NCBI GenBank assembly: GCA_040905715.1
Contig: JBBDRA010000003.1
Coordinates: forward strand, 135,075-199,074
Direction: 5' to 3'
DNA: 64,000 nt
Source of the DNA: Minisyncoccota bacterium
GTDB lineage: Bacteria > Patescibacteriota > Minisyncoccia > Phycocordibacterales > CSBR16-193
The position numbers and the translations under genes were made by a program. Positions 9,565 through 51,543 of this stretch are shown here, one piece after another. Numbering within the stretch: the stretch's first letter is position 1; every line of letters begins with the position of its first letter. Under the pieces are notes generated by a model. The model was not told the origin of the DNA and did not search any database. It was given only the letters and a program-made list of their open reading frames with translations.

Positions 9565-9585
9565 AAAAAGTCTTTATACTAATGA

Positions 9586-9628
9586 AAAGAAAAACACCGG
9601 TTTTTGCACCGGTGTTTTTCTTTTTGTG
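9586..9628. terminator. Rho-independent bidirectional terminator between the giant gene (+) and tsaD (-)
   Basis: aaaaaCACCGGTttttgcACCGGTGtttttctttttgtg: a 7-bp GC-rich stem with an A-run upstream and a T-run downstream. Confidence 0.6.
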
Positions 9629-9637
9629 TAGTAGCAC

Positions 9638-10840
9638 CTAGTCTTTTTTAATTCGCTTTTCTTCAAGAGAAAGGTTGCCAATAGCTTGGATCTGGCTAGG
9701 GTCTTGAAGTATAAGTGAAGGGTCGTATTGTGAGCGAATCCATCCAGCTAGGGCGATCATGAGCGCGTTGTCGCCGGTGAGTGCACGTGAGGCAATATGT
9801 GCCTCTGGAAGGCCACTATGAGCCTTAAATGAGCTTATAAGGCGTGTATTAGCGGCTACTCCTCCGGCAATAAGGATAGAGGATGCTCCATACGCATCAC
9901 ATGCACGCTCTGTTTTGGTCAGGAGGGTTTCAACGACTGCATCTTCAAATTCTCGAGATATACCCTGCTTTTGTTTATCAGTAAGTTCAGCAGTCGACTC
10001 GGCGATCTTTATGTTTTCTATGCCGTTGCGTACGGCTGTTTTTATTCCGGAAAAAGAGAAATTAAGATCGCCGGAGTTAAGCATTGGCCGAGGAAGAGCG
10101 AAGGGCGATGCGGTATCATCTTCACGTGCTTGTGTTGCCAGTTTTGATATTTCCGGACCTCCCGGATAGGGAAGCCCTAGCAAGCGCGCCACCTTGTCGA
10201 ATGCTTCTCCCGCAGCGTCGTCTACCGTCTGGCCAATGATCGAGTAGTCGCCCCAGGCTTTGATGAATACAAGCTCAGTGTGACCACCTGATACAAGAAG
10301 CGCGAGAGCGGGAAATTCTATTTTGCGTAATGGCTGCGCGGTGGCGCTTGCGGGGTCTTCTATAAGAAGGGAGGATATATGCCCTTCCATGTGGTTGACC
10401 GGTATTACCGGTACCTGCCAAGCGGCGCTGAGTGACTTGGCAAGATTGATACCAACCCAAAGCGTTGGTTCCAGGCCGGGGCCGTGTGTGACAGCGACAG
10501 CATCGATGTTTGGCTTGGGAGTTTTGGATAGGAAGGCGAGAAGAGCTTCGGCGAGTCCGGTCTCTCGAGCAAGTAGTTCGGTTATCTGGTTTTGTACCGT
10601 TTGTGATATATCGGGGACAGATGTGCCGAGAGCGGTTTTTTCAAGTGTCTTTTTTATAAGAGGAACAGCGTTTTGTGCATGCTCACGCTTTGCCAGGGAA
10701 GGAAAGACGCCGCCGTACTCTCGGTGAATGTCAATCTGGGAGAGTATCTCGTGGGCGTGTATTGTGACCGATGAACCGTCGATGTCGATTAATGCAAAGG
10801 AGGTTTCATCACAGCTTGTTTCGATCGAGAGAAGCTTCAT
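9638..10840 (-). CDS. tsaD: tRNA N6-adenosine threonylcarbamoyltransferase TsaD/Kae1 family (400 aa, C-terminal extension)
   Basis: N-terminus MKLLSIETSCDETSFALI matches the TsaD signature (GIETSCDDT). Metal-binding HMEGH. ASKH-fold glycine-rich motifs. Confidence 0.85.
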   Translation of the reverse strand: MKLLSIETSCDETSFALIDIDGSSVTIHAHEILSQIDIHREYGGVFPSLAKREHAQNAVPLIKKTLEKTALGTSVPDISQTVQNQITELLARETGLAEALLAFLSKTPKPNIDAVAVTHGPGLEPTLWVGINLAKSLSAAWQVPVIPVNHMEGHISSLLIEDPASATAQPLRKIEFPALALLVSGGHTELVFIKAWGDYSIIGQTVDDAAGEAFDKVARLLGLPYPGGPEISKLATQAREDDTASPFALPRPMLNSGDLNFSFSGIKTAVRNGIENIKIAESTAELTDKQKQGISREFEDAVVETLLTKTERACDAYGASSILIAGGVAANTRLISSFKAHSGLPEAHIASRALTGDNALMIALAGWIRSQYDPSLILQDPSQIQAIGNLSLEEKRIKKD

Positions 10841-11798: not shown

Positions 11799-11881
11799 GG
11801 AGGGGTCGGATAATGGCTATTCCACCGCTTTCGAAAAGCGGCGCCTTCACGGGCTTGCGGGTTCGAGTCCCGCCCTCTCCG
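11799..11881 (+). tRNA. tRNA-Ser (anticodon CGA), long variable arm; apparent integration site of the downstream AT-rich island
   Basis: GGAGGGGTCGGATAATGGCTATTCCACCGCTTTCGAAAAGCGGCGCCTTCACGGGCTTGCGGGTTCGAGTCCCGCCCTCTCCG. Anticodon arm CCGCT-TTCGAAA-AGCGG, T-arm GCGGG-TTCGAGT-CCCGC. Confidence 0.75.
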
Positions 11882-11950
11882 CAGTAAAAATTTAGTATCG
11901 GAAGACCCGAATACCCTTATTTTTAGGGATTTCTAGAAACCGATGAAAGT

Positions 11951-12125
11951 GCAAAAAGTTCGAACCTTTGTGGGGCAGTAGTCACGTGATATAGACAGTG
12001 TCTCCTGAAATAACCATATTTTGCAATGCATATTTAGAACGAGTCATGGGTTCGAACTTTTGTGATTTTTGCTAAAAACAATAAAGTTCTATTTCAAGCC
12101 ATATTTTCAGTTCGAATCTTAGAGA
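11951..12125. promoter_or_regulatory. Three copies of a GTTCGAAC(C/T)TTTGTG-like motif between tRNA-Ser and the first island gene
   Basis: aaagGTTCGAACCTTTGTGggg at about 11958, gGGTTCGAACTTTTGTGatt at about 12048 and cAGTTCGAATCTTAGAG at about 12109. The GTTCGAAC core is palindromic. Confidence 0.3.
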
Positions 12126-12190
12126 CTTTTTTTCCGACATTGATTCCTCGCTCGATTGACTAAGGGTATATTTTCAATAGAATTAAAATA

Positions 12191-13132
12191 ATGTTGCTAG
12201 ACGCTTATAAAAAAATGTTCCTTATTCGAATTGCAGAGGAACAATTGGCTGATTATTATCTTAAAAATAAGATAATGAGCCTCGTTCATTTTTATGTTGG
12301 GCAGGAAGCGATAGCGGTCGGGGTATGTGATGCTTTACATAAAAATGATCGTGTTATGGGTAATCATCGATCCCATGGACACTATTTGGCTAAAGGGGGC
12401 GATCTTAAAAAAATGGTATGTGAATTGTTCGGAAAGGAATGTGGTTCGTCACATGGTAAAGGTGGCTCAATGCACATGATTGATACTTCAGTTAATTTCA
12501 TTGGATCAACACCAATTCTATCTAGCGCTGTACCGCTTTCATGCGGTAGTGCGCTTGAACAAAAATATCACAAAAGCGACATGATAACAGTCGTGTTTTT
12601 GGGTGACGGCGCATTTGAAGAAGGAGGTGTATATGAATCTTTGAATTTGTCCACGCTTTTTAAATTACCACTACTTATCGTTCTTGAGAATAATCTCCGG
12701 TCTATTGACACACGTCTTTGGGAACGTCGATCTTCCGCACACGATACTAAAAAGATCGTTACTGGATTTGGAGTGCAATATGTAAAAGCTGATGGGAATG
12801 ATTATTTAGATGTAGTAGGAAAAGTTAGAAAGCTTATTCCTGAAGTGCGCGAAGGAAAACCTGCTCTTATTGAGTGTATGACTTATCGTCATATGGCACA
12901 CAGCGGACCAACTTTTGAGGAAGAAACCCGCGAGGAGGATACTATAGAACAACGAAAGGAAAACGATTCAGTATTGAAGATTAGACAAAAAATACTCGAT
13001 TCAGGAATCACGGAGGAAGAGGTTATTGCCGTGGAGAATAATATTAAAAAAACTGTTACCAATGCCATCGTGTTTGCTAAGAGGGCACCTTTTCCGAAGA
13101 AAGAAAGCTTATACACCGATCTTTATGTCTAA
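12191..13132 (+). CDS. TPP-dependent 2-oxoacid (pyruvate/acetoin) dehydrogenase E1 component, alpha subunit
   Basis: YVGQEAIAVGV...GNHRSHGHYLAKGGD...GKGGSMHM...FLGDGAFEEGGVYESLN is the hallmark of E1 alpha (TPP-binding). Confidence 0.85.
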   Translation: MLLDAYKKMFLIRIAEEQLADYYLKNKIMSLVHFYVGQEAIAVGVCDALHKNDRVMGNHRSHGHYLAKGGDLKKMVCELFGKECGSSHGKGGSMHMIDTSVNFIGSTPILSSAVPLSCGSALEQKYHKSDMITVVFLGDGAFEEGGVYESLNLSTLFKLPLLIVLENNLRSIDTRLWERRSSAHDTKKIVTGFGVQYVKADGNDYLDVVGKVRKLIPEVREGKPALIECMTYRHMAHSGPTFEEETREEDTIEQRKENDSVLKIRQKILDSGITEEEVIAVENNIKKTVTNAIVFAKRAPFPKKESLYTDLYV

Positions 13133-14165
13133 TAGAATTATCACATACACTGAAGCAATTAAAGAAGCCACAGACCAAATAATGGATGTGGATCATAATG
13201 TTGTTGTTATGGGACTCGAAGTTTCATATAAAAATGGTGCAGACGGAACAACGGCCGGACTTAAGAAAAAATATCCTCACCGCATAATTGAAACACCTCA
13301 ATCAGAAAATGCAGTAACAGGAATGGCAGTTGGCGCTGCTATAACAGGCCTTCATCCTATTGTGCATCATGGCCGAGTTGAGTTCGCGCTCTTTGCTGCT
13401 GATCAAATATTTACACAGGCTGCGAAGTGGAATTATATGTTTGGCGGTGGACATCCTGTTCCAGTTGTGTTTAGGATAAACATCGGTCGTCAGTGGGGTC
13501 AGGGTCCTCAGCATACACAAGCTCTCTATTCACTCTTTGGTAACGCGCTTGGTATTAAAGTCGTTATTCCTTCTACGCCATCTATGGCAAAGGGTCTACT
13601 TATCTCGGCGGTTCGTGATAAAAATCCTGTAGTTATATTGGAGCCACGTTGGCTTTTTTCTTTGAAACAAAACGTGTCAATTGAATCATATGATAAACCG
13701 CTGGATAAAGCTGTTGTGGTGAATGAGGGAGCGGATGTTACAATTGTTGCTTATGGGGATGGTTTAATCGCGGCACATGAAGCTTTAGAACTGATTGGTG
13801 ATGATGTCGGCGTGGATCTTATAGATCTTGTTTCTATAAATCCGATTGATTATGAAACCGTCTATAAATCAGTAAAAAAAACAGGTCGAATTATCACAAT
13901 TGATACTACAAATCACGCCTTTAGTGTTGGCTCAGATATAATTTCTAATGTTGCGCAACAGAAGTTGCTACATTTGAAGAATATTCCAATTTCAATTTCT
14001 TGCCCCGATGTTCCGGTTCCGACATCAACAATACTGACTGAATCTTATTACCCAACCAAAGTGGACATTGCTAATACTGTGTTACGTCAATTGGGTAAAC
14101 CTACCATTAAGCACGATCTAACTTTTGAAGAAATTCACACTTCTCCTAATTACATTATTAAATAA
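13125..14165 (+). CDS. TPP-dependent dehydrogenase E1 component, beta subunit (transketolase-like)
   Basis: Start chosen at ATG 13125 (MSNRIITYTEAIKEA...), overlapping the alpha stop by 8 nt. ETPQSENAVTGMAVGAAITGLHPIV...ILEPRWLF... is typical of E1 beta. The ORF track's upstream start at 13026 would overlap alpha by 107 nt and is rejected. Confidence 0.8.
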   Translation: MSNRIITYTEAIKEATDQIMDVDHNVVVMGLEVSYKNGADGTTAGLKKKYPHRIIETPQSENAVTGMAVGAAITGLHPIVHHGRVEFALFAADQIFTQAAKWNYMFGGGHPVPVVFRINIGRQWGQGPQHTQALYSLFGNALGIKVVIPSTPSMAKGLLISAVRDKNPVVILEPRWLFSLKQNVSIESYDKPLDKAVVVNEGADVTIVAYGDGLIAAHEALELIGDDVGVDLIDLVSINPIDYETVYKSVKKTGRIITIDTTNHAFSVGSDIISNVAQQKLLHLKNIPISISCPDVPVPTSTILTESYYPTKVDIANTVLRQLGKPTIKHDLTFEEIHTSPNYIIK

Positions 14166-14346
14166 ATTGAACAAAAGATATTTATAAATAACATAAAATA
14201 AAAATTGATTTCATCCACTCGGACTTATCTATCTTCGATGTTTTGTGGTTTATATAGCTATTAATTACAAATCTATCAAAAGCGATAGGGGTGCTTAGAG
14301 ATTACATTTTACTATAGACTTAGGTAATGTTTTATGGTACTATAAT

Positions 14347-15921
14347 ATGGAAAATATGGAAAATAATAAACAAAAGTTTATAAGAGATAAAAACCTCCCT
14401 AAATCTATACGATCTGTAGTCCGCATGTATCCATCTAATCAGATCAACAGATTGTTCTATGGCGGACTACCTCACTTGGGTAATACACTTTTGAACTCTT
14501 GGAAATCTGTTGAAATACAAGAAGCCGCCAAAGTGTACGATGAGTATAGTCTATCCACAAACCTTCTCATTAGAGGCTTCAAGGAGCCTACGGTAGATAA
14601 AGTAAGATTAGGTGTCGGCAGTCCTGCACGTTTTAAGCCTTTTGATAGGTGTCTTGCGGGTATTAAAAATGCCTTGAAAGATAGAATTCTTTCTGACTAT
14701 CAATTAGCTGCGGGATATAGTGAGGATAAAAAACCAGTCATGAGATACTTAAAAGTTTCTCATGACTTAGAAACAAATGAGAATAATATTATTTTTACAC
14801 ATTCAAGTACACAGGCATTTACTCTTGTAATGGAAGCCATACTAGATTATGGAGATGTTGTTATTATGACAGCTCCTAATTATGGTCTTTTTTCTTTTAT
14901 CCCAGAAAGAGTTGGGGGTAAAGTCAGGCTTTTACCTCTTACGAGCACTGACAATTGGAAGATAAACCCTCAAGATCTAAAAAAACTCATTTCTAATACT
15001 AATGATGAACTTAAACAAGATTATGATGTGAATCGTGAAAAATATGTTTTAAGACGTTCTGATATAGCACCAAAAGTTTCTGCTTTTCTCAATTTAAATC
15101 CACATAACCCAACAGGGGTCGTTTATAGTAAAAAAGATGAGTCATTATTATTAGAAATTTCTAATATTTGCAAGGCCGCTGGTGTATTTATTATAGATGA
15201 TTTAGCTTATTCTGGTTTAGAATTTGATAGAAGTTCTACTGCATTACCCATGAATAGTTTAAAAGATCACTTTGAGAATACAATATCATTGTACTCTCTT
15301 TCTAAATCTTACGGGTTAGCTGGTTTAAGATCGGGTATGATCATTGCTAATGAGGTGATTATCTCTTTAATAAGAGATAAAATTTTTCAGAATCTAGATT
15401 CGTTGTCTTTACTGCAATCGGCAGCCATGAGTTCAACCTTCTTAATTGAGGATGATGCCACTACAGAAAAAGAGAAGTACTTTACTGATATTGCTAAGAA
15501 ATATTATGAGAGATATGTTTTTGCAAAATCAATTATTATAGGAGCTGATAAAATTAAAAGGAAAGAGAGAATACTTCTTAAGAAAATAATTCGTAATAAT
15601 AATCTTATTCTTGATATCGATAAATCTATGAGTGGTATCAAGGAGGTTAGTATAATACTTGATCCAGAATCAGGATTTTTTGTTCTTTTAGATTTTAGTA
15701 AATTGATTGGAAAATCTTATAAAGGATTTAAAATTACTGATGATACGACCTTGTTACAGTTTCTATACACCTCAGGCAATATTAAATTATTGACAGGCAA
15801 AGCATTTTGTTGGCCTAATCAAGACCAACTTGTTGCAAGAGTAACTATTGCATTTGATGACTACGAAGAATTACTGAAATCTTTCTTACGCCTCAAATCA
15901 TCTATAGAATTATTAAAATGA
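14347..15921 (+). CDS. PLP-dependent aminotransferase, class I/II fold, with ~150-aa C-terminal extension
   Basis: NPHNPTGVVYSKKDESLLLEI...FIIDDLAYSGLEFD...SLSKSYGLAGLRSGMIIAN carries the pyridoxal-lysine motif S-x-S-K-x-x-G-x-x-G-x-R of class I aminotransferases. Confidence 0.65.
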   Translation: MENMENNKQKFIRDKNLPKSIRSVVRMYPSNQINRLFYGGLPHLGNTLLNSWKSVEIQEAAKVYDEYSLSTNLLIRGFKEPTVDKVRLGVGSPARFKPFDRCLAGIKNALKDRILSDYQLAAGYSEDKKPVMRYLKVSHDLETNENNIIFTHSSTQAFTLVMEAILDYGDVVIMTAPNYGLFSFIPERVGGKVRLLPLTSTDNWKINPQDLKKLISNTNDELKQDYDVNREKYVLRRSDIAPKVSAFLNLNPHNPTGVVYSKKDESLLLEISNICKAAGVFIIDDLAYSGLEFDRSSTALPMNSLKDHFENTISLYSLSKSYGLAGLRSGMIIANEVIISLIRDKIFQNLDSLSLLQSAAMSSTFLIEDDATTEKEKYFTDIAKKYYERYVFAKSIIIGADKIKRKERILLKKIIRNNNLILDIDKSMSGIKEVSIILDPESGFFVLLDFSKLIGKSYKGFKITDDTTLLQFLYTSGNIKLLTGKAFCWPNQDQLVARVTIAFDDYEELLKSFLRLKSSIELLK

Positions 15922-16790
15922 AAATATATATTGTCTCATCAGAAAAGCACGCAGGAAAAATCCAAGAGGATGTTTATATGCGTGATGTTTACAGGAATAA
16001 TGGTTTTTCTTGCGAAATTCGCATCTTAAAAGACATTGTAAAGATCTCAAAACCCTTTGATGTGGTAATTTTAAAAAGTATCTGGGGATATCACTTACAT
16101 CATCGTGATTTTCTAAAGCAGATATTAATACTCAAGAAAAAAAATATTAAACTAATAAATGATTATGATTTTATTTTTTGGAATATTGACAAATATAAGT
16201 ACTTAGAGGAATTAAAGGACGTAAATGTAATTCCAACCACACTACTTAATTTTAAAAATACAAAGAAAAAATCAGAGATTATAGATATAATATTACAAAC
16301 AAATACAACATTAAATACGGATGTATTAGTTATTAAGCCTTGTATTTCAGAAAGTGGGTACTTAACACTTAAATACGATAAAGCAAAAGATAATAAAATT
16401 ATTATTTCCTCACTACAAAAGAATAAACAACTTAATTTTATTGCACAACCATATAGATCCAGTGTCTTGTCTGGAGAGATTTCCGTAGTTGTAATCAATG
16501 GAGTTCCTTTATACGGTATAAAGAGATTTCCTGGAATTTTTTGCGAAAAATTAAATCCAGTCTATATAAAGTTTGATAGTTTACCAATTACTATAAAAAA
16601 AGAAGTGAACGTATTAGGATCGTTTTTCTTAGCCAAGTTTGGTAGTTATCCTAATATATGCAGAATTGATTTCTTGAAGTTTAATACTACTTATGAAGTT
16701 TTGGAGGTAGAATTGATAGATCCTGATTTATTCTTTAGGTACACACCAGACAGTTTGAGAGAAAAAGCAACTCTCATGATTAATAAATAA
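15918..16790 (+). CDS. ATP-grasp-like ligase (RimK/GshB-like), divergent
   Basis: VIKPCISESGY...FIAQPYRSSVLSGEISVVVINGVPLYGIKRF resembles the ATP-grasp C-terminal half (IxQxY...GxEIRVxVIGG). Weak. Confidence 0.4.
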   Translation: MKIYIVSSEKHAGKIQEDVYMRDVYRNNGFSCEIRILKDIVKISKPFDVVILKSIWGYHLHHRDFLKQILILKKKNIKLINDYDFIFWNIDKYKYLEELKDVNVIPTTLLNFKNTKKKSEIIDIILQTNTTLNTDVLVIKPCISESGYLTLKYDKAKDNKIIISSLQKNKQLNFIAQPYRSSVLSGEISVVVINGVPLYGIKRFPGIFCEKLNPVYIKFDSLPITIKKEVNVLGSFFLAKFGSYPNICRIDFLKFNTTYEVLEVELIDPDLFFRYTPDSLREKATLMINK

Positions 16791-16803
16791 TTTATAATTA
16801 ACT

Positions 16804-17274
16804 ATGTATAGAAAAGGAGTTTCAGCAATTATAGTCAACCAAGAGAATGAGTTTCTCTTGGTTAATTTAGAATCTTTTGAGGAGAAGTATTTTGCTATTC
16901 CGGGTGGTGGAGTTGAGCAGGAAGAAGAACTAAAAGATGCTGTGTATAGAGAAATAGAAGAAGAGTTGAATATAGAGAAAAAATCTCTTTTACTGATTGG
17001 AAAAAGTAATTTACCAGTAATGATTAAATTTAAAACCATTAAGTTTAATGATGGTGGTAAAGAATTTGATGGAATGGAAAGATATTTTTTCGGATTTAAA
17101 TTTATTGGTGATGATAAGATAATAACCCCGAACCCCGGAGAGGTGCGAACTTACAAATGGGTTGCGTACGACAATTTGAAAGACTATCTTTTATTTGATA
17201 ATCAATTAGAAGAAACAACAGAAAAAATACTTGAAATATTCAGCACGGAAATAACCCCTAACAAAGGATCATAA
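16804..17274 (+). CDS. NUDIX hydrolase
   Basis: NUDIX box GGGVEQEEELKDAVYREIEEELNI (G-x5-E-x7-R-E-U-x-E-E-x-G-U). Confidence 0.85.
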   Translation: MYRKGVSAIIVNQENEFLLVNLESFEEKYFAIPGGGVEQEEELKDAVYREIEEELNIEKKSLLLIGKSNLPVMIKFKTIKFNDGGKEFDGMERYFFGFKFIGDDKIITPNPGEVRTYKWVAYDNLKDYLLFDNQLEETTEKILEIFSTEITPNKGS

Positions 17275-17383
17275 ATATTATTATTTGACACCATAATCAT
17301 ATCGTGTTAATTTGTACATAGATTCATTATATGTTGTTCTGATTTTAAGATCTGTTCTTCACATCCAAAAACGGAGGTAAGTC

Positions 17384-18073
17384 ATGAAAGAAGTATCGAA
17401 AAGTTACGAAGAAGTTAAGACGATGCAGGAGTCCTTTTGGGAAACCATCCACAGCAGAGGCGAGTGGTGGGATTTGTGTTTCGTTCCCAACCCACTCGCC
17501 ACTGACCTTCAAGAAATTCTCCCAGCGAGATCAAAAATTTTGGAGGTCGGTTGCTCTTCAGGGAGAGATGCGAGGTACTTCGCATCTCATGGTCACTTCA
17601 TTGTGGCTATGGATTTTTCAAAAAATGCCTTGAAGCGAATGATGGATCACGCAAGAAAACAAGGCATTGATGTACAAATAACACCTGTACACAAAAACGT
17701 GGCGGAAGGTCTCCCTGATTTTCAGGCGGATTCAATTGATTGTTTCTATTCTCGGTCATCTCTTCATGTTGATGATGACACTATGGTGCAGTTGGCTAAA
17801 AAGATTAGCCTCTACACAAAAAAGGGTGGTATTATTGCTATCGAAGGAAGAACTGAGAATGACACCCCGATATTGGAAAGTGAGGATATCGGTGATGGGT
17901 TGGCAATCAATTGGAAGCAGGGAGGGCACCTACGACGCATTTGGAGAAAAGACTTTTGTATACAACTTGCGAAAGATCTTTCCTGGGAGATTATAACTCT
18001 CGAGGATCGTCATGATGATCTAGGAAACGAAAAGAACCTCCTGCGTTTTGTTGCCAAAAAAGGCTCTGTGTAA
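17384..18073 (+). CDS. Class I SAM-dependent methyltransferase
   Basis: Motif I ILEVGCSSGRDARYFASHGHFIVAMDFS and later acidic motifs. Rossmann-fold MTase. Confidence 0.7.
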   Translation: MKEVSKSYEEVKTMQESFWETIHSRGEWWDLCFVPNPLATDLQEILPARSKILEVGCSSGRDARYFASHGHFIVAMDFSKNALKRMMDHARKQGIDVQITPVHKNVAEGLPDFQADSIDCFYSRSSLHVDDDTMVQLAKKISLYTKKGGIIAIEGRTENDTPILESEDIGDGLAINWKQGGHLRRIWRKDFCIQLAKDLSWEIITLEDRHDDLGNEKNLLRFVAKKGSV

Positions 18074-18153
18074 AATACAGAGCCTTTTTTTATAATTTAT
18101 AATTTATTTTAAAGTCTGTATACTGATATGTAAGCATACGGAGCTAAATTTTT

Positions 18154-19380
18154 ATGAAAAGACCAACATTATTATTTGTAGAAGAATATGAAAATACACT
18201 ATCAAGGAGCGTGGTGTCAAACAGAACTATCAACTTAGTCTTGATAAGATTTAAGCAGAATATGTTCTTTAGTCAAACCCATCTCAAAAAAACATCTAAT
18301 ATTCCTTGTTTCGTTTTTAATAAAGCAGAATCCATGGAACATGAAGTTGAGAGGTTTAGAGAATTCTGTAATAAAAATGAAATTGTTGTTGACTATTTTT
18401 ATAATGACTCTGAATACAACCAAGAAGTGATCCAGAAGTTTGCTTCGTTACTTAGACTTCCCGGCGCTCTTAATGAGTATCAAGCTCTCTGTGTAAGAGA
18501 TAAAGCGGTAATGAAAGATAAAATGCAGGAACTTGGATATCGAACAATGCCATATCAAGAACTCAATTCCATTGATGATGCCTTGGAATTCTCAGAAAAA
18601 AACGATGGTTTCCCATTTATTATTAAATGGCGTAAAGGAATGTCATCGAAAGAAGTGTATAGGATTGAAAATAAGAATCAACTAGAATCATTACAGTTAG
18701 ATTATTCTACAGGGAGATTTATAGCGGAAACATACTGTCCTTACTTAATATGGAGCTTTGATTCCCTTATTCAGGACGGTGGGGTGGTTGGAACTTTTCT
18801 TACTTGGCTTCCATATACTAATCTTAGTTTCGCCGAGAAAAAGGATAAGTTTGCTCAGATTACAGTTGCAGAAGATCATGAGAATATTAAATTCGACGGA
18901 AGAAAAATAACCCAAGACATTATCAGTGAGTTTGGCTTGAAAAATGGATATATAGAAATTGAGTTTTTTGTTGACTCTCAAGGGCAGCCTATAATATGTG
19001 AGTTTGCATGGAGAACTGCTGGTGAACACATGTTGTCAAATCAAAGCATTGCGTTTGGGGTAGACGCTTGTTCTTTATTAACCGATATTGTGGTTGGAAG
19101 AAAAATACAGCCTCTTCCATTAAGTGGTAAACAGTGTGTCGGTGACATGTTCCTGCCGTTGACTAATGGAATTGTCGCTGAAATTTCTACATATCAGGAT
19201 TTAAGTGACCTTGCTGGGGTAATCGATGGAAACATTACATACAAGGCGGGAGATGTCATTGAGTCAAAAAGGCAATATACGAGTTGTGCTGGCTGGATTC
19301 AGGTTACTGGACAAACCCCTGAAGAGGTTTTAGATAGAATGTTAAAAGTATATGAAAAGTTTAAAATTGTCACAGTTTAA
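18154..19380 (+). CDS. ATP-grasp domain carboxylate-amine ligase
   Basis: CVRDKAVMKDKMQELGYRTMPYQEL...GFPFIIKWRKGMSSKEVYRIEN...GYIEIEFFVDSQGQPIICEFAWRTAGE is the ATP-grasp pattern (a pre-ATP-grasp lysine-containing strand followed by an E/D-rich catalytic loop). The true start may be an internal Met at about 18334. Confidence 0.55.
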   Translation: MKRPTLLFVEEYENTLSRSVVSNRTINLVLIRFKQNMFFSQTHLKKTSNIPCFVFNKAESMEHEVERFREFCNKNEIVVDYFYNDSEYNQEVIQKFASLLRLPGALNEYQALCVRDKAVMKDKMQELGYRTMPYQELNSIDDALEFSEKNDGFPFIIKWRKGMSSKEVYRIENKNQLESLQLDYSTGRFIAETYCPYLIWSFDSLIQDGGVVGTFLTWLPYTNLSFAEKKDKFAQITVAEDHENIKFDGRKITQDIISEFGLKNGYIEIEFFVDSQGQPIICEFAWRTAGEHMLSNQSIAFGVDACSLLTDIVVGRKIQPLPLSGKQCVGDMFLPLTNGIVAEISTYQDLSDLAGVIDGNITYKAGDVIESKRQYTSCAGWIQVTGQTPEEVLDRMLKVYEKFKIVTV

Positions 19381-19446
19381 TCAATCTATCGCAACATGTT
19401 TAATTATTAATAAACACCAGACGAAATATGGATAATAAAATTAGGT

Positions 19447-20340
19447 ATGAAAAAATTTAATAAAATAGCAATCATTAACACGGTTAAGATTACTGAAGAA
19501 TCAAAAGAAAAAATCCAGCTTTACTCAAAAGAGCCTATTGTTTATCCTGAGTTTGACACAGAAAGTGAAGCGGAAATTTGTCAAAGAATTGATAACGCTG
19601 ACGCAGTCTTGGGTAATTTTCATTCAATTATAAATGCTTCTATTTTGGAACATTCACCGAATCTTAAGTATATTGGAATTTGTGGAACAAGTTTGACGAA
19701 TATTCATTTAGAGGAGGTGCGAAGAAAAAACATAGTTATAAAAAATGTCACTGATTATGGCGATGATGCGACGGCTGAGTATATTTTTACTCAACTACTT
19801 AATCTTCTCAGAGGATTTGGTCAATATATGTGGAGAGATGGCCCTAGTGAGCTTAATTCAAAAACAATTGGAATTGTTGGTTTAGGAGCAACTGGAAAGA
19901 AAGTTGCTAATATAGCCTTGGGGTTTAAGATGAAAGTCTTTTATTACAGTAAAACCAGAAAAACAGACTGGGAGAATAAGGGAATTCAATATTTGCCTAT
20001 CAATGATTTACTTGAAAAAAGTGACATTATAACTATACATGTCCCTAGAGATACTAAAGTAATTGGAACTGATGAACTAGATACAATGGGTAATGGAAAG
20101 ATTTTAATCGATACATGTCTAGGAAATATTTATAAAGATATTAACGCTGTTAAAAAATGGCTTAAAAATAAAGATAATTTTCTCATAAGAGATCATCATT
20201 CTGAAATAAAAAAAGATCTTGGTCATTTGGAGGGTTTAATATATACAGAGGATGTGATAGCTGGAATGACCTTAGAATCTAGAAATTTATTGAGTGTAAA
20301 AGTTATAGATAACATTGAAGCATATTTAAAAACTAATTGA
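19447..20340 (+). CDS. D-isomer-specific 2-hydroxyacid dehydrogenase (NAD-binding)
   Basis: NAD-binding GxGxxG in IGIVGLGATGKKVANIALGFKMKV. The catalytic-domain layout is typical of the D-2-hydroxyacid dehydrogenase family. Confidence 0.75.
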   Translation: MKKFNKIAIINTVKITEESKEKIQLYSKEPIVYPEFDTESEAEICQRIDNADAVLGNFHSIINASILEHSPNLKYIGICGTSLTNIHLEEVRRKNIVIKNVTDYGDDATAEYIFTQLLNLLRGFGQYMWRDGPSELNSKTIGIVGLGATGKKVANIALGFKMKVFYYSKTRKTDWENKGIQYLPINDLLEKSDIITIHVPRDTKVIGTDELDTMGNGKILIDTCLGNIYKDINAVKKWLKNKDNFLIRDHHSEIKKDLGHLEGLIYTEDVIAGMTLESRNLLSVKVIDNIEAYLKTN

Positions 20341-20404
20341 TTAGATCTTTGAAAAAGTTATAGTGGACACCAAAAAGTTTAGATCTAATCCCCTGATTAA
20401 AAAA

Positions 20405-20433
20405 GTGCCCAGACAGTAAAACTGTTTGGGCAC
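20405..20433. terminator. Bidirectional hairpin terminator between convergent dehydrogenase (+) and ndk (-) genes
   Basis: GTGCCCAGACAGtaaaaCTGTTTGGGCAC: 11/12 complementary arms preceded by AAAAA. Confidence 0.5.
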
Positions 20434-20855
20434 TACAGCATGCGGAAAACCTCGATGTCTTTTTTAGCTTCCGCGCTGTTTCTGGAACGGTGTATGACAT
20501 TCTTATAATACCTCACACCGTCGATCATGAGTGGTTCTGGTGTACCGAGTTTAAATCGGATACTTTCAGGAGCACAATCAGTGGGACTAAGTTCTGTGCC
20601 TGTGATTTGAAGAAGTGTATTAATGGCATCTCTCCCAACCACAAGTCCTGTTTCAACATATGCGTTTACATAGGGTTTAAAGACCGCATTCCTGTACCTT
20701 TCGGGAAGGTCGGAATATACGATTTCTAGTGCCCAGTGTGGCATTATAAGCTTCTTAGTCTCTGGGATGCTTAGACCACCATTCTCAATCATTTTCTTGA
20801 CTTTATCATGGAATACTAAACCGTGAGGCTTGATCATGTAGAAGCTGGTTTCCAA
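20433..20855 (-). CDS. ndk: Nucleoside diphosphate kinase
   Basis: N-terminus ETSFYMIKPHGL (cf. ERTFxMIKPDGV). The C-terminal NVIHRSRNSAEAKKDIEVF parallels NxxHGSDSxESAxREIxxFF, including the catalytic His. Confidence 0.8.
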   Translation of the reverse strand: METSFYMIKPHGLVFHDKVKKMIENGGLSIPETKKLIMPHWALEIVYSDLPERYRNAVFKPYVNAYVETGLVVGRDAINTLLQITGTELSPTDCAPESIRFKLGTPEPLMIDGVRYYKNVIHRSRNSAEAKKDIEVFRML

Positions 20856-21120
20856 AGTACGGCCCTCCTTTCTTATTTAAGGTTTCCTATTCTGATAAGG
20901 ATAATATAATATATTTATGTTTCCGTCAAATGCAAAAATTTATAACCTAATAAGAGATTTACATAATATTGTTATACGTAACTAATCTCTTAGTAAAAAA
21001 TTGATAATTCTCATCAAACTTCAGAATAGATCAGGGATTATGTCTTAAGTAAAATAAGAAAACATATATTCTAAGCCACATTCAGTTTGAGACCGAGACA
21101 GTTTCGAACTTTTTCTGTAT

Positions 21121-22431
21121 TTACGCCATCAAATCAACTTTCTTGTCTTTTACTGTTAACCTACTCTTAAGACAATTCATCAGCTCTCGCTTCTCATCGT
21201 TGGTACCCTCCTGCAGAAGGTACTTTGCATACGTCCTCATATCAAACTCTTTTATTTTTGATTCATCTTCATGCAAGATTCCTTTCCTAAATTTATTGAA
21301 TCGTTTCAGTTCATCTTCAAACTTCTTTTGTATACCTAGTTCGCTGACACTCACTTTATCAATGATTCCAATTAGTTGTTTTATTAAATCTTCTTCACGC
21401 AGATACGGATTTTTGCAGTGTCGATCTCGTGATCTACCACAACCGTAGTAGATGTATTTGGCGGTCGTGCCGTCACGGAGTTTTTTGTATTTCTCTTCAG
21501 CTGAGATACCTGATCCGCACTTGCCACAGAGCATGAGTTTGGTGAAGGCAAACTCCTTATGCTCTCTAACAATCTTATCTCGTTTCAAATGCTCTTGAGC
21601 TTCGTCAAATAGCTCTTTAGTGATGAGCGGTTTGTGCTTTCCTTGATACCAGTTGCCGGAGTCTCGTGGATACTCAAAGACACCGTAATAGAACGGATTG
21701 TCGAGCAGTCGGTAGATACCGCTAAGAGTAAGTGGTTTGTTTCCTCTGGTATGGAAATTAAGTTCAAATCGAAGCCAATGATACAACTTTCTGCCAGACC
21801 ATTTATCGTGTGCCACCTTCTCAAACATCTGCCTTACCACATGACCGCGCTCAGGATCGACTAGTAACAAACCTTTCTTGTCGGTTCGTTTTTGGTTGAG
21901 ATATCCTAATGGTGCCACCGTCGGCCAGTATCCCATCTCACAACGTGCCCTGAGTCCTCGCTTCACGTTAATGCCTCGGTTATCGTTCTCAAGCTTGGCC
22001 TGTGAGCCAAGAATCATTAGGAGGAACTTCTCATTCGGATTATTAGTGAACACCTGTCCATATGTTCGTATCTCATGGAGTTTCCCTTGGTCCATTAGAT
22101 CAACAACTGCGCCGAGGTCTCCGGCATTCCTCGACAGACGATCAGGTGCCCATGCCAGAATACCGGTATACTTGCCAACCCTAACCTCATCCATCAGCTC
22201 ATTGAATACTGGCCTCTGAGCAGTATCTTTGGCTGAATGACTCTCGCGCTTAATATCTACCACTTCAAGCCCTTCACGCTCAGCCAACTGAAGCATCTCC
22301 TTGATCTGCGAATCGATTGAAAGTACCTGACGTTCTTCGCTCTCGGTACTTTTTCGTGAGTACAAGCAGTACTTTATCTTTTCTTTCGGTACTACTTGGT
22401 TTTGCTCCTTTTCTTGTACTGGTATCTCCAT
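21121..22431 (-). CDS. Large serine recombinase (resolvase-domain integrase)
   Basis: N-terminal resolvase domain YCLYSRKSTESEERQVLSIDSQ with catalytic Ser. Recombinase domain, zinc-ribbon cysteines (CGKCGS...YYGCGRSRDRHC) and a C-terminal coiled-coil. Confidence 0.9.
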   Translation of the reverse strand: MEIPVQEKEQNQVVPKEKIKYCLYSRKSTESEERQVLSIDSQIKEMLQLAEREGLEVVDIKRESHSAKDTAQRPVFNELMDEVRVGKYTGILAWAPDRLSRNAGDLGAVVDLMDQGKLHEIRTYGQVFTNNPNEKFLLMILGSQAKLENDNRGINVKRGLRARCEMGYWPTVAPLGYLNQKRTDKKGLLLVDPERGHVVRQMFEKVAHDKWSGRKLYHWLRFELNFHTRGNKPLTLSGIYRLLDNPFYYGVFEYPRDSGNWYQGKHKPLITKELFDEAQEHLKRDKIVREHKEFAFTKLMLCGKCGSGISAEEKYKKLRDGTTAKYIYYGCGRSRDRHCKNPYLREEDLIKQLIGIIDKVSVSELGIQKKFEDELKRFNKFRKGILHEDESKIKEFDMRTYAKYLLQEGTNDEKRELMNCLKSRLTVKDKKVDLMA

Positions 22432-22542: not shown

Positions 22543-22746
22543 ATGGATAATGAATCTAAAAACTTGGAAGATTTGCCTGAGATATTGACCCTGCGACAAG
22601 CCGCAAATGTTCTTAATTGTCACCCTAATACCTTGAGAAACTGGGATAATGAAGGAGTACTTAAGGCAATTCGTATCGGTCGCCGGAAAGATCGACGATA
22701 TAAAAAAGAGGATGTGTTTAAAATTTTGAAACAAAACAATGGCTAA
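22543..22746 (+). CDS. Excisionase/MerR-like HTH DNA-binding protein (candidate recombination directionality factor)
   Basis: 67 aa. ILTLRQAANVLNCHPNTLRNWDNEGVLKAIRIGRRKDRRY is an Xis/HTH_17-type motif. Divergent from the recombinase gene, and it overlaps the mod start. Confidence 0.65.
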   Translation: MDNESKNLEDLPEILTLRQAANVLNCHPNTLRNWDNEGVLKAIRIGRRKDRRYKKEDVFKILKQNNG

Positions 22747-24406
22747 AGATTACTCAAAAATGAATAAGGAAGAATTACTGAATGAGATTACGAAATTAGA
22801 ATCTCGCAAGTCTTATGGTTTGGTGTGGGAAGATAAGCCAGAGGATGTTGTTGAACAGTGTAAAACTCAAATACCGATTCTTACTGAAGTTAAAAAATAT
22901 TTTATCGAAAAAGATTTGGATAAGCCGACAAATCTTTTGATCGAAGGAGATAATTATCATGCTTTAGCAACATTGAATTATACTCATAGAAAACAAATTG
23001 ACATTATTTATATTGACCCACCGTACAATACTGGTGCAAAGGATTGGAAATACAATAACGATTATGTGGATGAGAATGATTCATTTAGACATAGTAAATG
23101 GTTGTCGATGATGAACCATCGGTTACGTTTATCTAGAAACTTACTTACGGACGAAGGCGCCTTAATTTGCGCGATTGATCATAATGAACAAGAAGCGCTG
23201 GGCGTAATGTTGGATGAGCTTTTTCCAGAAAGAGAGAAAGTTTGTGTAACCATCATACATAATCCTGGTGGGATTCAAGGAAACAATTTTTCTTACACAC
23301 ACGAATATGCATACTTTGTTTTCCCTAAAAATGGCACGTATATCTCAAAGGTTATTAGAGACGATGTAAAGCCTACTCCGCTTAGAGATTGGGGCGGTGA
23401 AGAATCTAAACGCGAATCTGCTAGAAATTGTTTTTACCCAATTCATGTAGATAAAGAAATGAATGTTACGGGATTTGGTGATGTGTTACCAGAAAATAAA
23501 CATCCCAAGTCTGCTGTATTAAAAGAAAAAGATGGATCAATGGTAATTTACCCCATTGACTCTGATGGAGTTGAACGTAAGTGGAGATTTGCGCGACATA
23601 CTGTTGAAAGTATTGAAGATGAACTTAGATGTGAAATAGTAAATGGTGAACCATCAATACGCCGATACAAACAAAAATATAGATGGAAAACTGTTTGGAA
23701 TGATAGTAAATACAATGCAAATGTCCACGGTACACAATATCTTGCAGGTATTATTAAGGAAAAATTCCCTTATCCTAAATCAATCTTTACAGTAGAAGAT
23801 TGTATTAAGGCCATTATTCACGATAAACAAACTGCAACCGTATTAGATTTTTTTGCTGGATCAGGTACAACTGGTCATGCGGTTTTGAAACTTAACGAAG
23901 AAGATGGAGGTAATCGTCGATTCATTCTTTGCACTAACAATGAGAATAAAATCGCTGAAGAAGTAACTTATCCTCGGGTTAAGAACGTTATCAAGGGGTA
24001 CGGTGACGTAGAAGGTATTCCCGCGAATCTCCGATACTACAAAACTGATTTTGTGGATGTTGAATCAGTTCACAGTGTTTCAGATCAAAAGAAAATAGAG
24101 CTTACATATAAAGCAGGTCGGATGATTGCTCTACGAGAGGACACGCTAGAGGAGACTGAGAAGAATGACTGGTGGCAAATATTTACTGACAAAAAAGGAA
24201 AAACCACAGCTATTTATTTTAAAGAGGATAAAGAAAAACTTGATGATCTTGTAAAGAAAATCAGTAAATCTGAATCTGCTGTTCTTTACATATTTAGCTG
24301 GGGTAAAAATGAGTATAAGAACGAGTTTACTGGCCATAAAAACATACGGGTCGAAGATATCCCAGAACCGATCCTTGAGGTATACAAGGAAATTAACAAG
24401 AAATAA
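22739..24406 (+). CDS. Type III restriction-modification Mod subunit (N6-adenine/N4-cytosine DNA methyltransferase, beta class)
   Basis: Motif IV IDIIYIDPPYNT precedes motif I VLDFFAGSGTTGHAV. It lies directly upstream of a helicase-nuclease Res gene. Confidence 0.8.
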   Translation: MAKDYSKMNKEELLNEITKLESRKSYGLVWEDKPEDVVEQCKTQIPILTEVKKYFIEKDLDKPTNLLIEGDNYHALATLNYTHRKQIDIIYIDPPYNTGAKDWKYNNDYVDENDSFRHSKWLSMMNHRLRLSRNLLTDEGALICAIDHNEQEALGVMLDELFPEREKVCVTIIHNPGGIQGNNFSYTHEYAYFVFPKNGTYISKVIRDDVKPTPLRDWGGEESKRESARNCFYPIHVDKEMNVTGFGDVLPENKHPKSAVLKEKDGSMVIYPIDSDGVERKWRFARHTVESIEDELRCEIVNGEPSIRRYKQKYRWKTVWNDSKYNANVHGTQYLAGIIKEKFPYPKSIFTVEDCIKAIIHDKQTATVLDFFAGSGTTGHAVLKLNEEDGGNRRFILCTNNENKIAEEVTYPRVKNVIKGYGDVEGIPANLRYYKTDFVDVESVHSVSDQKKIELTYKAGRMIALREDTLEETEKNDWWQIFTDKKGKTTAIYFKEDKEKLDDLVKKISKSESAVLYIFSWGKNEYKNEFTGHKNIRVEDIPEPILEVYKEINKK

Positions 24407-24408
24407 TT

Positions 24409-26690: not shown

Positions 26691-27383
26691 ATGTCATCCC
26701 GTCAAGTAACAAATTGGATTTCTCTTTCTGACATGATGACAGGGTTAATGCTGGTCTTTCTCTTGATTGCTGTTTTGAGTATTGCGCAGGTTGTTGCAAA
26801 AGAAGAAGAGCGACAGGAATTATTGAATGAATATGATTTATCTAAGGAGGAAATTTACAATGATCTAGAAGATACGTTTGGAGACAAAAAAGAAGAATGG
26901 GGAATTGAGATAAGTCGAGATTTGAGCATCAAATTTCAAAATCCTGACGTATTGTTTGGTTATTTAAGTTCTGATATCTCCTCAGAATTTGAAACTATTC
27001 TAGAAGAATTTATTCCTTCGTATCTAAAGATAATAAATAAAGAAAAATATCAAGACAAAATTAAAGAAGTTCGCGTTGAGGGTCATACAGCTGATTGGAA
27101 TGATTATATGTTTACGGTTAAATTGTCTCAAGAAAGGGCAAATGCTGTATTAAGGACTATACTTAACAGTAGCTATTACAACAATTTAGATGCTAAAACA
27201 AAAGATAAAATTAAGTTTTGGTTTACAGCTAATGGACTGGGAAATGGTAGAACTTTGGACTCAGAAGGTGAGTTTACTTATTATTCCGATAAAGATATAA
27301 GCACAAACTCTCGTCGAGTTGAGTTTAGGATTGTGACAACAAGTGATGAACTAATTGAGGAGATTATCAATAGACAGCAATAG
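26691..27383 (+). CDS. MotB/ZorB-like protein: N-terminal TM with conserved Asp plus C-terminal OmpA-like peptidoglycan-binding domain
   Basis: WISLSDMMTGLMLVFLLIA parallels the MotB channel helix (W..yADfMTamMafFlv), including the protonatable Asp. The C-terminal VRVEGHTADWNDY...LSQERANAVLRTIL is the OmpA/MotB signature. Confidence 0.7.
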   Translation: MSSRQVTNWISLSDMMTGLMLVFLLIAVLSIAQVVAKEEERQELLNEYDLSKEEIYNDLEDTFGDKKEEWGIEISRDLSIKFQNPDVLFGYLSSDISSEFETILEEFIPSYLKIINKEKYQDKIKEVRVEGHTADWNDYMFTVKLSQERANAVLRTILNSSYYNNLDAKTKDKIKFWFTANGLGNGRTLDSEGEFTYYSDKDISTNSRRVEFRIVTTSDELIEEIINRQQ

Positions 27384-27389
27384 AACATT

Positions 27390-28427: not shown

Positions 28428-28432
28428 TATCT

Positions 28433-31663: not shown

Positions 31664-32278
31664 TTACCGTTTATTTCTCCTTATCTTTTTTCTATCAAGA
31701 AGTTTCTGAAGATTATCCGCCACCTCTTTAGCTCCGTCTATTTTCAATTTATCTTTTACATCATAAAACTGATCAAAGAAATCATTTATAATATGACGCA
31801 CCTCCTCGCTAGTTCGTTCTTTGGTTCCAAGTTCTTTAATTCTTTTCGATAGCTCGTGAACCAAATCTTCTTTACTTATTTTCTGTTTTTTTCTGCCTCT
31901 ATACTTTTCTATATTGGGTTCTTTATAACCACAAACCCGACATGTTTCTCCAGATTCAAGTTTGTGTGGATGAGTAACTGGATCGACATAAGTTGTACGA
32001 ACTGGTTTGTATCTCGGATTGTTGTATTGAAGCCAGAATATAATAAGGCGAGCATTTTCGTTTTTGATGCCTTTAATAACCGCTGACTCAGCCATGTCAT
32101 TTATGTTCTGCCGACCTATTTCCAATATCGCATCAGTCTGATCACGAAAGTCTTTATCATCCTTACGCCATCTGTAGTAGGTGGTTCGATCAAGGCCGAT
32201 TTTCTTACAGGCAAAAGACACAATTGGTGTCTCTGCCAATATTTGTAATAGTTTCGATTTATCACCCAACCTAGCCAT
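31664..32278 (-). CDS. Phage terminase small subunit (TerS)-like HTH protein
   Basis: N-terminal HTH PIVSFACKKIGLDRTTYYRWRKDDKDF followed by NARLIIFWLQYNNPRY. Compare the aaIFwLKNRrPExW pattern of phage TerS proteins. Confidence 0.5.
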   Translation of the reverse strand: MARLGDKSKLLQILAETPIVSFACKKIGLDRTTYYRWRKDDKDFRDQTDAILEIGRQNINDMAESAVIKGIKNENARLIIFWLQYNNPRYKPVRTTYVDPVTHPHKLESGETCRVCGYKEPNIEKYRGRKKQKISKEDLVHELSKRIKELGTKERTSEEVRHIINDFFDQFYDVKDKLKIDGAKEVADNLQKLLDRKKIRRNKR

Positions 32279-51535: not shown

Positions 51536-51543
51536 TTCTAGCC

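Follow-up and report, generated by a model that had tools for sequence, protein, structure and literature searches.

A conserved core of two ATP-grasp enzymes, an aminotransferase, a Nudix hydrolase and an NDK paralogue in Patescibacteria: a possible pathway of nucleotide-coupled amino-acid ligation

In gene clusters of the blasticidin S/arginomycin type, the ligase encoded at the blsI position is proposed to join the carboxylate of an amino acid to an amine borne by the sugar of a nucleoside. ATP-grasp ligases are, more generally, the usual enzymes coupling amino acids to nucleosides in pathways of the peptidyl-nucleoside type (PMC11641026). Here, we analysed a 64,000-nucleotide stretch of a Minisyncoccota bacterium (positions 135,075 to 199,074 of contig JBBDRA010000003.1, assembly GCA_040905715.1), hereafter the window, in which a cassette at positions 12191-20855 encodes two ATP-grasp enzymes together with genes for nucleotide handling. 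We assessed the distribution of this cassette among related loci, delineated its conserved core and compared it with described pathways. We propose, with a probability of roughly 0.45, that the cassette encodes a nucleotide-coupled amino-acid ligation pathway, in which an amino-acid amide would be formed on, or with, a nucleoside- or nucleotide-bearing partner.

An earlier note on this DNA had listed nine genes in the cassette, and all nine were recovered by open reading frame (ORF) listing and profile scans. They form a co-directional, operon-like block followed by one convergent gene. Related loci, i.e. 29 from genomes and 80 from metagenomes, were scored by tblastn with ten proteins of the window. 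The order aminotransferase, DcsG-like ATP-grasp, Nudix, ligase recurred in 72 loci of Patescibacteria type, and in many genomes the genes keep this order with stop and start codons that overlap; the trio aminotransferase, DcsG-like protein and ligase was also present in about 40 distant loci (Firmicutes, gut and rumen contigs). The conserved core consists of five genes, encoding a long class-I aminotransferase, a DcsG-family ATP-grasp enzyme, a Nudix hydrolase, an ATP-grasp ligase of the L-amino-acid ligase (LAL) type and a paralogue of nucleoside diphosphate kinase (NDK). In most genomes this core lies among housekeeping genes (aminoacyl-tRNA synthetases, FtsW/MurG, ABC-F) with conserved synteny. 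As at least 70 contigs of Patescibacteria carry it, the candidate phyla radiation (CPR) is its main home, and the cassette is not the unusual cargo for a CPR-like genome that it had been taken for.

The remaining genes of the cassette are distributed more narrowly. The alpha/beta pair of a thiamine pyrophosphate (TPP)-dependent E1 enzyme occurs in 7 loci and a protein of the D-2-hydroxyacid dehydrogenase (2-HADH) fold in 14, all with a ligase at least 76 % identical to that of the window; both are accessories of one Paceibacterial subclade. Their position varies: in loci L032 and L068 the E1 pair follows the 2-HADH-fold gene instead of lying ahead of the aminotransferase. The closest relative of the cassette, L013 (89 % nucleotide identity across the ligase), has no 2-HADH-fold gene, its ligase running straight to the NDK-like gene.

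The aminotransferase gene (14347-15921, plus strand, 524 aa) encodes an enzyme of the class I/II fold dependent on pyridoxal phosphate (PLP), with a Pfam Aminotran_1_2 match of 6e-31 (108 bits, cut-off 19.7). Among 12 family members from three lineages, the invariants were NPxNPTG, DD..Y, SK with the PLP lysine, R328 and R498 (i.e. positions N251/N254, D284/D285, Y288, S319-K320, R328 and R498). Since all class-I hallmarks are retained, including the arginine for the alpha-carboxylate, the substrate is predicted to be an alpha-amino acid or a 2-oxo acid. The protein matched the structures of AlaA and AspAT, and its best NCBIfam match, GntC (1.4e-33), lay far under the cut-off.

The aminotransferase gene overlaps by 4 nt that of the first ATP-grasp enzyme (15918-16790, plus strand, 290 aa). 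The profile of this family matched the DcsG structure 6jil over nearly its full length (E = 1.8e-18, residues 23-278), DcsG being the sole solved structure that the family matches well. The catalytic positions K, Q, E, R-x-D and E-x-E are invariant; on the DcsG profile NF058666, the protein reached 57.9 bits against an equivalog cut-off of 360. The DcsG-like family comprises about 300 clusters at 50 % identity.

The second ATP-grasp enzyme, the carboxylate-amine ligase (18154-19380, plus strand, 408 aa), carries a LAL_C2 domain (38.6 bits, Pfam cut-off 29.4). Its family profile matched the solved LALs RizA (4wd3, 1.5e-18), BacD (1.6e-10) and BL00235 (4.9e-8), and the single-sequence phmmer score against RizA was only 35 bits. 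Both ATP-grasp assignments of the earlier note thereby survived profile searches against solved structures. At least 120 homologues of the ligase, 44-92 % identical to it, were found nearly all in Patescibacteria (Paceibacterota, Vogel-, Zambryski-, Taylor- and Berkelbacteria). Its best annotated relatives (31 % identity over the full length, BLASTP 9e-59) occupy the blsI position of blasticidin/arginomycin-type clusters and are located on plasmids of Streptomyces and Kitasatospora (NZ_CP107895, NZ_CP108290). This closer similarity to blsI-position ligases suggests that the acceptor of the ligase need not be an amino acid.

The two other core genes relate to nucleotides. The Nudix hydrolase (16804-17274, plus strand; Pfam NUDIX 3.8e-17, 63 bits) is encoded in 62 of the 72 Patescibacteria-type loci. 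Its Nudix box, GGVEQEEELKDAVYREIEEELNI, was read from the translation against GX5EX7REUXEEXGU: REIEEE is intact, and replacement of the last G by N is the only change. The NDK-like gene (20433-20855, minus strand, convergent with the operon) gave a Pfam NDK match of 3.6e-10 (40.3 bits, above the cut-off of 27) and only 33 bits on NCBIfam NF001908, for which the cut-off is 155. The catalytic histidine is kept, NVIH aligning with NIIH of the Staphylococcus aureus NDK, GSD is replaced by RSR, and a 9-residue insert is present. Only 61 homologues were found, on the same contigs as the ligase. The gene is convergent downstream in 20 of the 32 loci with enough downstream sequence, and in L029 it has been relocated to the opposite side, where it still adjoins the cassette. 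These features identify the predicted protein as a highly divergent, cassette-linked paralogue and not a housekeeping kinase, which corrects the earlier call of an ndk gene.

A survey of variant operons further unveiled recurrent ties between ligation and nucleotide genes, several of them as gene fusions. In L035, L006 and L034, the aminotransferase carries a fused Nudix domain, and protein P0073 is an apparent fusion of Nudix and ligase. In four independent rumen or gut contigs (L079, L081, L085 and L101; ORFs of 592-654 aa), the ligase bears a cytidylate-kinase-like domain as an N-terminal fusion. Next to these fused ligases we noted genes for a second, HisC-like aminotransferase, for a Nudix protein and for a PLP decarboxylase. 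In other versions of the cassette, P-loop kinases of nucleoside monophosphates or nucleosides replace NDK.

Three distant arrangements could be distinguished. The Firmicute type comprises a sugar-1-phosphate nucleotidyltransferase, the Nudix::aminotransferase fusion, a BshB-like PIG-L deacetylase, a second aminotransferase, the DcsG-like gene and the ligase, followed by a B12-radical-SAM gene (SAM, S-adenosylmethionine) and a second radical-SAM gene. The first gut type comprises LysR, Nudix, aminotransferase, DcsG-like, an AAA_28 kinase, the ligase and a polar-amino-acid ABC importer, and, in addition, genes for a methyltransferase-like protein, a dNK-like kinase, more Nudix proteins and APH kinases. 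In the second gut type, the cytidylate-kinase::ligase fusion is followed by Nudix. Some Patescibacterial variants insert a GH20 hexosaminidase (L028), an APH kinase (L030) or a P-loop kinase, and in L027 and L033 the Nudix gene has an extra N-terminal region weakly matching 2-oxoglutarate-dependent oxygenases.

Because of these repeated fusions and of the cassette-specific NDK, the ligation chemistry appears tied to a nucleoside, a nucleotide or a partner of the NDP-X type (NDP, nucleoside diphosphate). The position of the best annotated ligase relatives in peptidyl-nucleoside clusters supports this tie independently. The Nudix hydrolase and the NDK paralogue are integral parts of the cassette, a link that the earlier note had overlooked, as it had those ligase relatives. 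Its overall interpretation otherwise fared in two ways: an E1 devoid of E2 and E3, the ATP-grasp enzymes, a biosynthetic logic of amino-acid ligation in place of a pyruvate dehydrogenase (PDH) operon, and transfer all held, and the rarity in CPR and the weight given to particular genes did not.

The substrates, the order of the steps, the product and the biological role that we infer would be as follows. The PLP enzyme would interconvert an alpha-amino acid and a 2-oxo acid, thereby supplying or altering the amino-acid unit. Each ATP-grasp enzyme would activate a carboxylate as an acyl phosphate; one of them may couple it to an amine, as proposed for blsI-position ligases with an aminonucleoside, and the other may add a further unit or close a ring in a DcsG-like manner. 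The Nudix hydrolase and the NDK paralogue would either adjust how the nucleotide moiety is phosphorylated or free this moiety. Where present, the E1 pair, predicted to be E2-independent, and the 2-HADH-fold protein would most likely feed or trim a 2-oxo-acid or ketose-type precursor. As product class we propose a compound resembling peptidyl nucleosides or peptidyl nucleotides, or else an intermediate linked to NDP-X.

Several points weigh against such nucleotide-coupled ligation. The source of the nucleotide partner and the fate of the product are not visible, as the core contains no nucleotidyltransferase, glycosyltransferase or exporter. The aminotransferase, with its alpha-carboxylate arginine, is of the amino-acid type and not of the nucleotide-sugar (DegT) type, and the 2-HADH-fold protein is without its catalytic triad. 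Identity to any characterised enzyme is at most about 31 %, and one of the three Streptomyces-type relatives of the ligase that were examined sits in a non-ribosomal peptide synthetase cluster, not in a nucleoside cluster. Finally, the Nudix hydrolase and NDK could instead serve housekeeping of the nucleotide pool; locus L037 has Ham1 and an NTPase gene nearby.

The accessory E1 pair was further analysed. The alpha subunit gene (12191-13132, plus strand; Pfam E1_dh 2e-59) may start at the ATG at 12215. For the beta subunit (13125-14165, plus strand, 346 aa; Pfam Transket_pyr and Transketolase_C), the start at 13125 was preferred to the TTG at 13026: it gives an 8-nt overlap with E1 alpha and matches the called protein P0121. 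Alignment of E1 alpha with human PDH E1 alpha showed the GDG...NN TPP motif and the active-site histidine (MAHS) to be kept, and alignment of E1 beta with Thermus thermophilus E1 beta did so for the TPP-activating glutamate (QSE) and the histidine (QHTQ). Relatives of E1 beta number more than 2500 and come mostly from Patescibacteria; in relatives of the cassette, the E1 beta gene directly precedes the aminotransferase.

These results bear on a first alternative, namely ordinary central metabolism and a chance grouping of genes: the E1 pair would belong to a PDH or acetoin dehydrogenase with E2 and E3 encoded elsewhere, the 2-HADH-fold protein would be a D-lactate or glycerate dehydrogenase, the aminotransferase an alanine or aspartate transaminase, and NDK and Nudix housekeeping enzymes. 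The closest structures to the E1 pair are indeed human PDH E1 and the 2-oxoacid dehydrogenase E1 of T. thermophilus, with the TPP motif and both histidines kept; databases label some E1 relatives 'acetoin:DCPIP oxidoreductase', and the matches of the aminotransferase to AlaA and AspAT point the same way. Against it, both subunits score under the NCBIfam cut-offs (E1 alpha, TIGR03182, 286 bits, equivalog cut-off for PDH E1 394; E1 beta, PRK09212, 254 bits, cut-off 321). No lipoyl-E2 or E3 was found among the scanned ORFs of the window (all those of at least 300 aa and most of at least 110 aa), or within 8-10 kb of E1 in eight relatives checked (including L036, L037, L118, L119 and L120), the closest non-cassette relatives among them, in agreement with the stand-alone E1 described earlier. 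The loss of catalytic residues in the 2-HADH-fold protein (see below), the rarity of the NDK paralogue and its linkage to the cassette, and the gene order conserved with overlapping stop and start codons in many genomes also speak against this alternative, already weakened and in our view very improbable.

Three E1 pairs of the next identity tier (61-71 % identical to the pair of the window) were examined, and all were located in surface-glycan clusters, without E2/E3. Since E2-free E1 alpha/beta pairs are common to the relatives, they are a regular trait of these organisms and not an assembly artefact; 'pyruvate dehydrogenase E1' calls in metabolic reconstructions of CPR are thus probably no evidence for PDH. 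On the three contigs concerned, L118, L119 and L120 (about 6000-9800 on each), a zinc-dependent alcohol dehydrogenase gene, E1 alpha and E1 beta are followed by a PfkB kinase or a short-chain dehydrogenase/reductase (SDR) gene within Parcubacterial surface-polysaccharide clusters. The glycan clusters around E1 pairs of this type hold GT1/GT2, epimerases, Wzx/Wzy and an ABC2 transporter. The module of alcohol dehydrogenase, E1 and PfkB or SDR may be an undescribed TPP-dependent sugar-modifying unit.

Such glycan clusters bring in the main rival to nucleotide-coupled ligation, i.e. the decoration of cell-envelope precursors. In this scheme an amino acid or short peptide would be put on an NDP-sugar or on a peptidoglycan or glycan precursor, the E1 pair carrying out a sugar-directed two-carbon transfer, and the Nudix hydrolase and NDK handling the NDP carrier. 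The closest non-cassette E1 pairs are those of the Parcubacterial glycan clusters, and the formation of C-branched sugars has been reported for pairs resembling E1 (e.g. AviB1/AviB2). Sugar-handling genes also appear in the variant operons, with the GH20 hexosaminidase of L028, the APH kinase of L030 and, in L035, L006 and L034, the sugar-1-phosphate nucleotidyltransferase, the BshB-like PIG-L deacetylase and GT2; moreover, Peptidase_S66 (LD-carboxypeptidase) is a repeated neighbour. However, genes for glycosyltransferases, flippases or Mur-type enzymes are missing from both the Patescibacterial core and the cassette of the window, and the aminotransferase belongs to the amino-acid type. In gut operons, the trio is accompanied not by glycan genes but by a LysR regulator and an ABC importer for polar amino acids. 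Neighbours 5-10 kb away may, besides, be there by chance in genomes of 0.5 Mb. Taken together, we regard envelope decoration as unlikely, though likelier than the other rivals.

Two other genes of the operon lie outside the core. The 2-HADH-fold protein (19447-20340, plus strand; Pfam 2-Hacid_dh_C 78.6 bits, 2-Hacid_dh 60.5 bits) keeps the NAD-binding GxGxxG motif as GLGATG. When aligned with glyoxylate reductase (5aov) and glycerate dehydrogenase, its catalytic arginine is replaced by leucine (DTCLG), its histidine by aspartate or asparagine (TE[DN]) and the glutamate, whose position is left unaligned, is lost, in 16 of 16 orthologues. The protein is therefore predicted to be either neofunctionalised or non-catalytic, and the 2-oxo/2-hydroxy-acid step once ascribed to it is not borne out.

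The class I SAM-dependent methyltransferase (17384-18073, plus strand; Pfam Methyltransf_25/11) has no homologue in about 115 related loci, and its GC content of 0.436 exceeds that of the adjoining genes (about 0.28-0.36); it is a later insertion private to this genome. Emphasis had earlier been placed on E1, 2-HADH and methyltransferase, which proved to be, respectively, accessories of a subclade, a fold that has lost its canonical active site and this private insertion. A strong terminator-like hairpin (18056-18090, plus strand; 16-bp stem and T run) lies at the end of the methyltransferase gene and is followed, ahead of the ligase, by a promoter-like site (18096-18124). In L002, L014, L016 and L017, a conserved minus-strand ORF of about 289 aa without family match lies between Nudix and ligase; as it occupies the same place as the methyltransferase of the window, the Nudix/ligase junction is seemingly an insertion hotspot. 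Another promoter-like site (12156-12183) was found upstream of E1 alpha. Rfam searches upstream of the operon, at gathering threshold and at E up to 1, returned tRNAs only and no riboswitch.

We then considered the genomic context of this copy of the cassette. The GC content of the window is about 47 %, except in a block from about 11.9 to 34.6-35.8 kb (0.29-0.40), of which the cassette forms the first third; the low GC noted previously (0.349 in the cassette, 0.468 in the flanks) thus extends well beyond position 20855. The left edge of the block is marked by a tRNA-Ser(CGA) gene (11799-11882, plus strand; ARAGORN, Rfam), 309 nt upstream of the cassette start. A large serine recombinase (21121-22431, minus strand; Pfam Resolvase, Recombinase and Zn_ribbon_recom) constitutes the mobility gene, and near the right edge (34726-34750, plus strand) the 3' end of tRNA-Ser recurs as a 25-nt direct repeat (22/25). 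Assemblies of the same population break at both edges, the hallmark of an island of about 22.7 kb that varies among strains: on the left, Logan contig L126 stops precisely at 11882, and contig L125, of a metagenome-assembled genome, at 11927; on the right, three independent assemblies end at exactly 34566. Exact attachment sites were not found, only the imperfect tRNA-Ser repeat (22/25) and a weak inverted repeat, and look-ups of the flanking proteins yielded no empty-site allele, only contigs stopping at the island edges.

The horizontal acquisition postulated earlier is upheld for this copy by its GC content, its location next to a tRNA gene, the neighbouring recombinase and the sibling assemblies that break at both ends. 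The island looks composite, with donor chromosomal DNA carrying the cassette joined to a recombinase/defence element; homology with L013 ends at 20934, between NDK and the recombinase. The GC content of the cassette resembles that of low-GC Paceibacterial genomes with the same E1/2-HADH variant (L007, L009, L012 and L013; 0.33-0.37), and in other hosts of higher GC the cassette is also 6-10 GC points under its flanks. This suggests repeated transfer of the cassette within the phylum. This copy is foreign to its host, though the cassette itself is not alien to CPR. In L036, a related low-GC Paceibacterial genome, a segment about 9 kb downstream of the cassette (17545-21230) encodes a large serine recombinase together with an N6_N4 methylase and a protein of 762 aa, and the region adjoining the cassette may be a recurrent integration spot.

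The island carries further cargo. Directly beside the serine recombinase lies a type III restriction-modification pair (22739-26688), i.e. Mod (PADLOC MTase_III 5e-75) and Res (ResIII/helicase). It is followed by a Zorya type II-like set (26691-29245) with ZorB2 (26691-27383, PADLOC 1e-66), ZorA2 (27390-28427, 1e-56, only 345 aa) and an HNH protein at the ZorE position (28433-29245). Further genes encode a DUF2779 protein with a Cas4-like nuclease N-terminus (29251-30723) and a ParB_N::N6_N4 DNA-methylase fusion (32271-33587), and several ORFs nearby are without family match (30763-31605, 33678-34388).

This neighbourhood raises the alternative that the cassette itself is an anti-phage defence system, making or destroying a modified nucleotide within a defence island. 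In addition to the restriction-modification and Zorya II genes on the same island, it may be argued that the Nudix protein matches the PADLOC candidate PDC-S07 (6e-10) and that the Firmicute and gut versions include nucleotide kinases and radical-SAM genes, the latter with a weak viperin-like match. Yet E1 alpha, the aminotransferase, the DcsG-like protein and the ligase gave no PADLOC match, the core lies in most genomes among housekeeping genes with conserved synteny, gut versions are LysR-regulated with an amino-acid importer, and no relatives were found in IMG/VR. We consider this alternative improbable. A known defence system was rejected as well, only the generic Nudix having matched in PADLOC, and that to a candidate, and so was a phage-borne auxiliary cassette, neither ATP-grasp enzyme having relatives in IMG/VR.

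Some other features of the window were recorded. A weak 22-nt inverted repeat (82 % complementary) on GTTCGAAC, at 11953-11974 and 21093-21114, exactly brackets the cassette and NDK, with two further copies of GTTCGAAC at 12049 and 12109; the bracketing is perhaps due to chance, since the motif is not enriched window-wide. At the right edge of the island, between the common assembly break (34566) and the copy of the tRNA-Ser 3' end, lies a segment of about 180 nt (34567-34750). It starts with GGAGAGGGCG, includes a hairpin of 26 nt (34649-34706) and closes with a sequence resembling a tRNA acceptor/T arm. Neither ARAGORN nor Rfam called anything in this segment, which may have been left behind by past integrations or may represent an unusual RNA resembling a tRNA. 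Outside the island, a 1633-aa surface protein with PKD/Ig domains (4663-9564) is encoded by DNA with long internal repeats, one of 579 nt at 96.7 % identity (5119-5697 and 5725-6303) and one of 245 nt, exact (6840-7084 and 7647-7891), and five tandem paralogues of small T4SS_pilin membrane proteins (TrbC/VirB2-like) are located at 50635-52884.

CPR/Patescibacteria are thought to be almost devoid of biosynthetic capacity, and yet many of them conserve this predicted ligation pathway of several enzymes. Given this conservation, that of the ligase in particular (55-92 % identical), and the movement of the pathway between lineages, its product is expected to matter for the symbiotic lifestyle. The same trio is found in gut and rumen bacteria, so that characterising one member would annotate the whole family. 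Beyond nucleotide-coupled ligation as such, it is conceivable, if rather doubtful, that the module is an unrecognised cross-phylum pathway to an amino-acid-nucleoside or -nucleotide conjugate, conserved and, on islands, passed from lineage to lineage in ultra-small, host-dependent Paceibacteria, where it would give an antimetabolite or a lineage-specific nucleotide-linked building block or cofactor. If so, an antimetabolite would act against hosts or competitors, and a neofunctionalised 2-HADH-fold protein and an E2-free E1 would be new tailoring enzymes. The cassette also offers enzymology of its own, with an E1 pair predicted to work without E2/E3, a triad-less 2-HADH fold and a cassette-specific NDK paralogue.

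The cassette was also compared with described systems. The window E1 shares with the heterotetrameric E1 of 2-oxoacid dehydrogenases (pyruvate, branched-chain or acetoin) the alpha2beta2-type pair, the TPP motif and one active-site histidine per subunit, and differs from these complexes in its missing E2/E3 partners, in its PDH scores below cut-off and in having relatives within glycan or ligase operons. The first ATP-grasp enzyme has the same catalytic positions as DcsG, which acts on a free amino acid via an acyl phosphate. The dcsA-F partner families were absent from the profile results for the window and related loci, and the predicted substrate of the first ATP-grasp enzyme is certainly different from that of DcsG. 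RizA, BacD/YwfE and BL00235 share the ATP-grasp fold and LAL_C2 with the window ligase and are far more distant from it than the blsI-position ligases. The partner genes of the rhizocticin and bacilysin clusters are absent here: those of bacilysin (e.g. BacA/B/C/F) and tabtoxin (e.g. the beta-lactam synthetase TblS), to which the cassette had been likened, and PEP mutase (PEP, phosphoenolpyruvate) were sought without success in profile scans of the nine cassette proteins, whereas those of dapdiamide, also cited, were not checked specifically.

Two further pathway types were rejected. A puromycin-like aminonucleoside pathway was set aside as Pur6 belongs to an unrelated family, and a beta-methyl amino-acid logic like that of ArgM as the aminotransferase is only generically ArgM-like and the methyltransferase is private to this genome. 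The argolaphos (alp) cluster of Streptomyces monomycini encodes the Nudix protein AlpB, the PRK02186-type ATP-grasp AlpC, the NDK-like AlpE, the 2-HADH-family dehydrogenase AlpK, the class-I aminotransferase AlpL and a TPP-dependent decarboxylase (PMC8976061). This list of parts is strikingly similar to that of the cassette, the likeness being one of gene descriptions. The TPP enzyme of argolaphos is a phosphonopyruvate decarboxylase, whereas that of the window is an E1, from a different family. A phosphonate pathway, as for argolaphos or FR-900098, was rejected: PEP mutase is present in no locus, which excludes C-P chemistry.

Literature searches returned no description of this operon. The nearest relationship is with the blasticidin S/arginomycin-type clusters, whose blsI-position ligase is a full-length homologue of the window ligase. 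The other bls genes, i.e. those for cytosylglucuronic acid (CGA) synthase, blsE/F, arginine 2,3-aminomutase, DegT aminotransferase and cytidine monophosphate (CMP) hydrolase, are missing here, and the bls clusters themselves are without Nudix, NDK or a DcsG-like gene. With a gene combination and a host range that are both undescribed, the cassette is nonetheless of a known kind, that of small-molecule pathways built on ATP-grasp ligases, among which the peptidyl nucleosides are its nearest kin.

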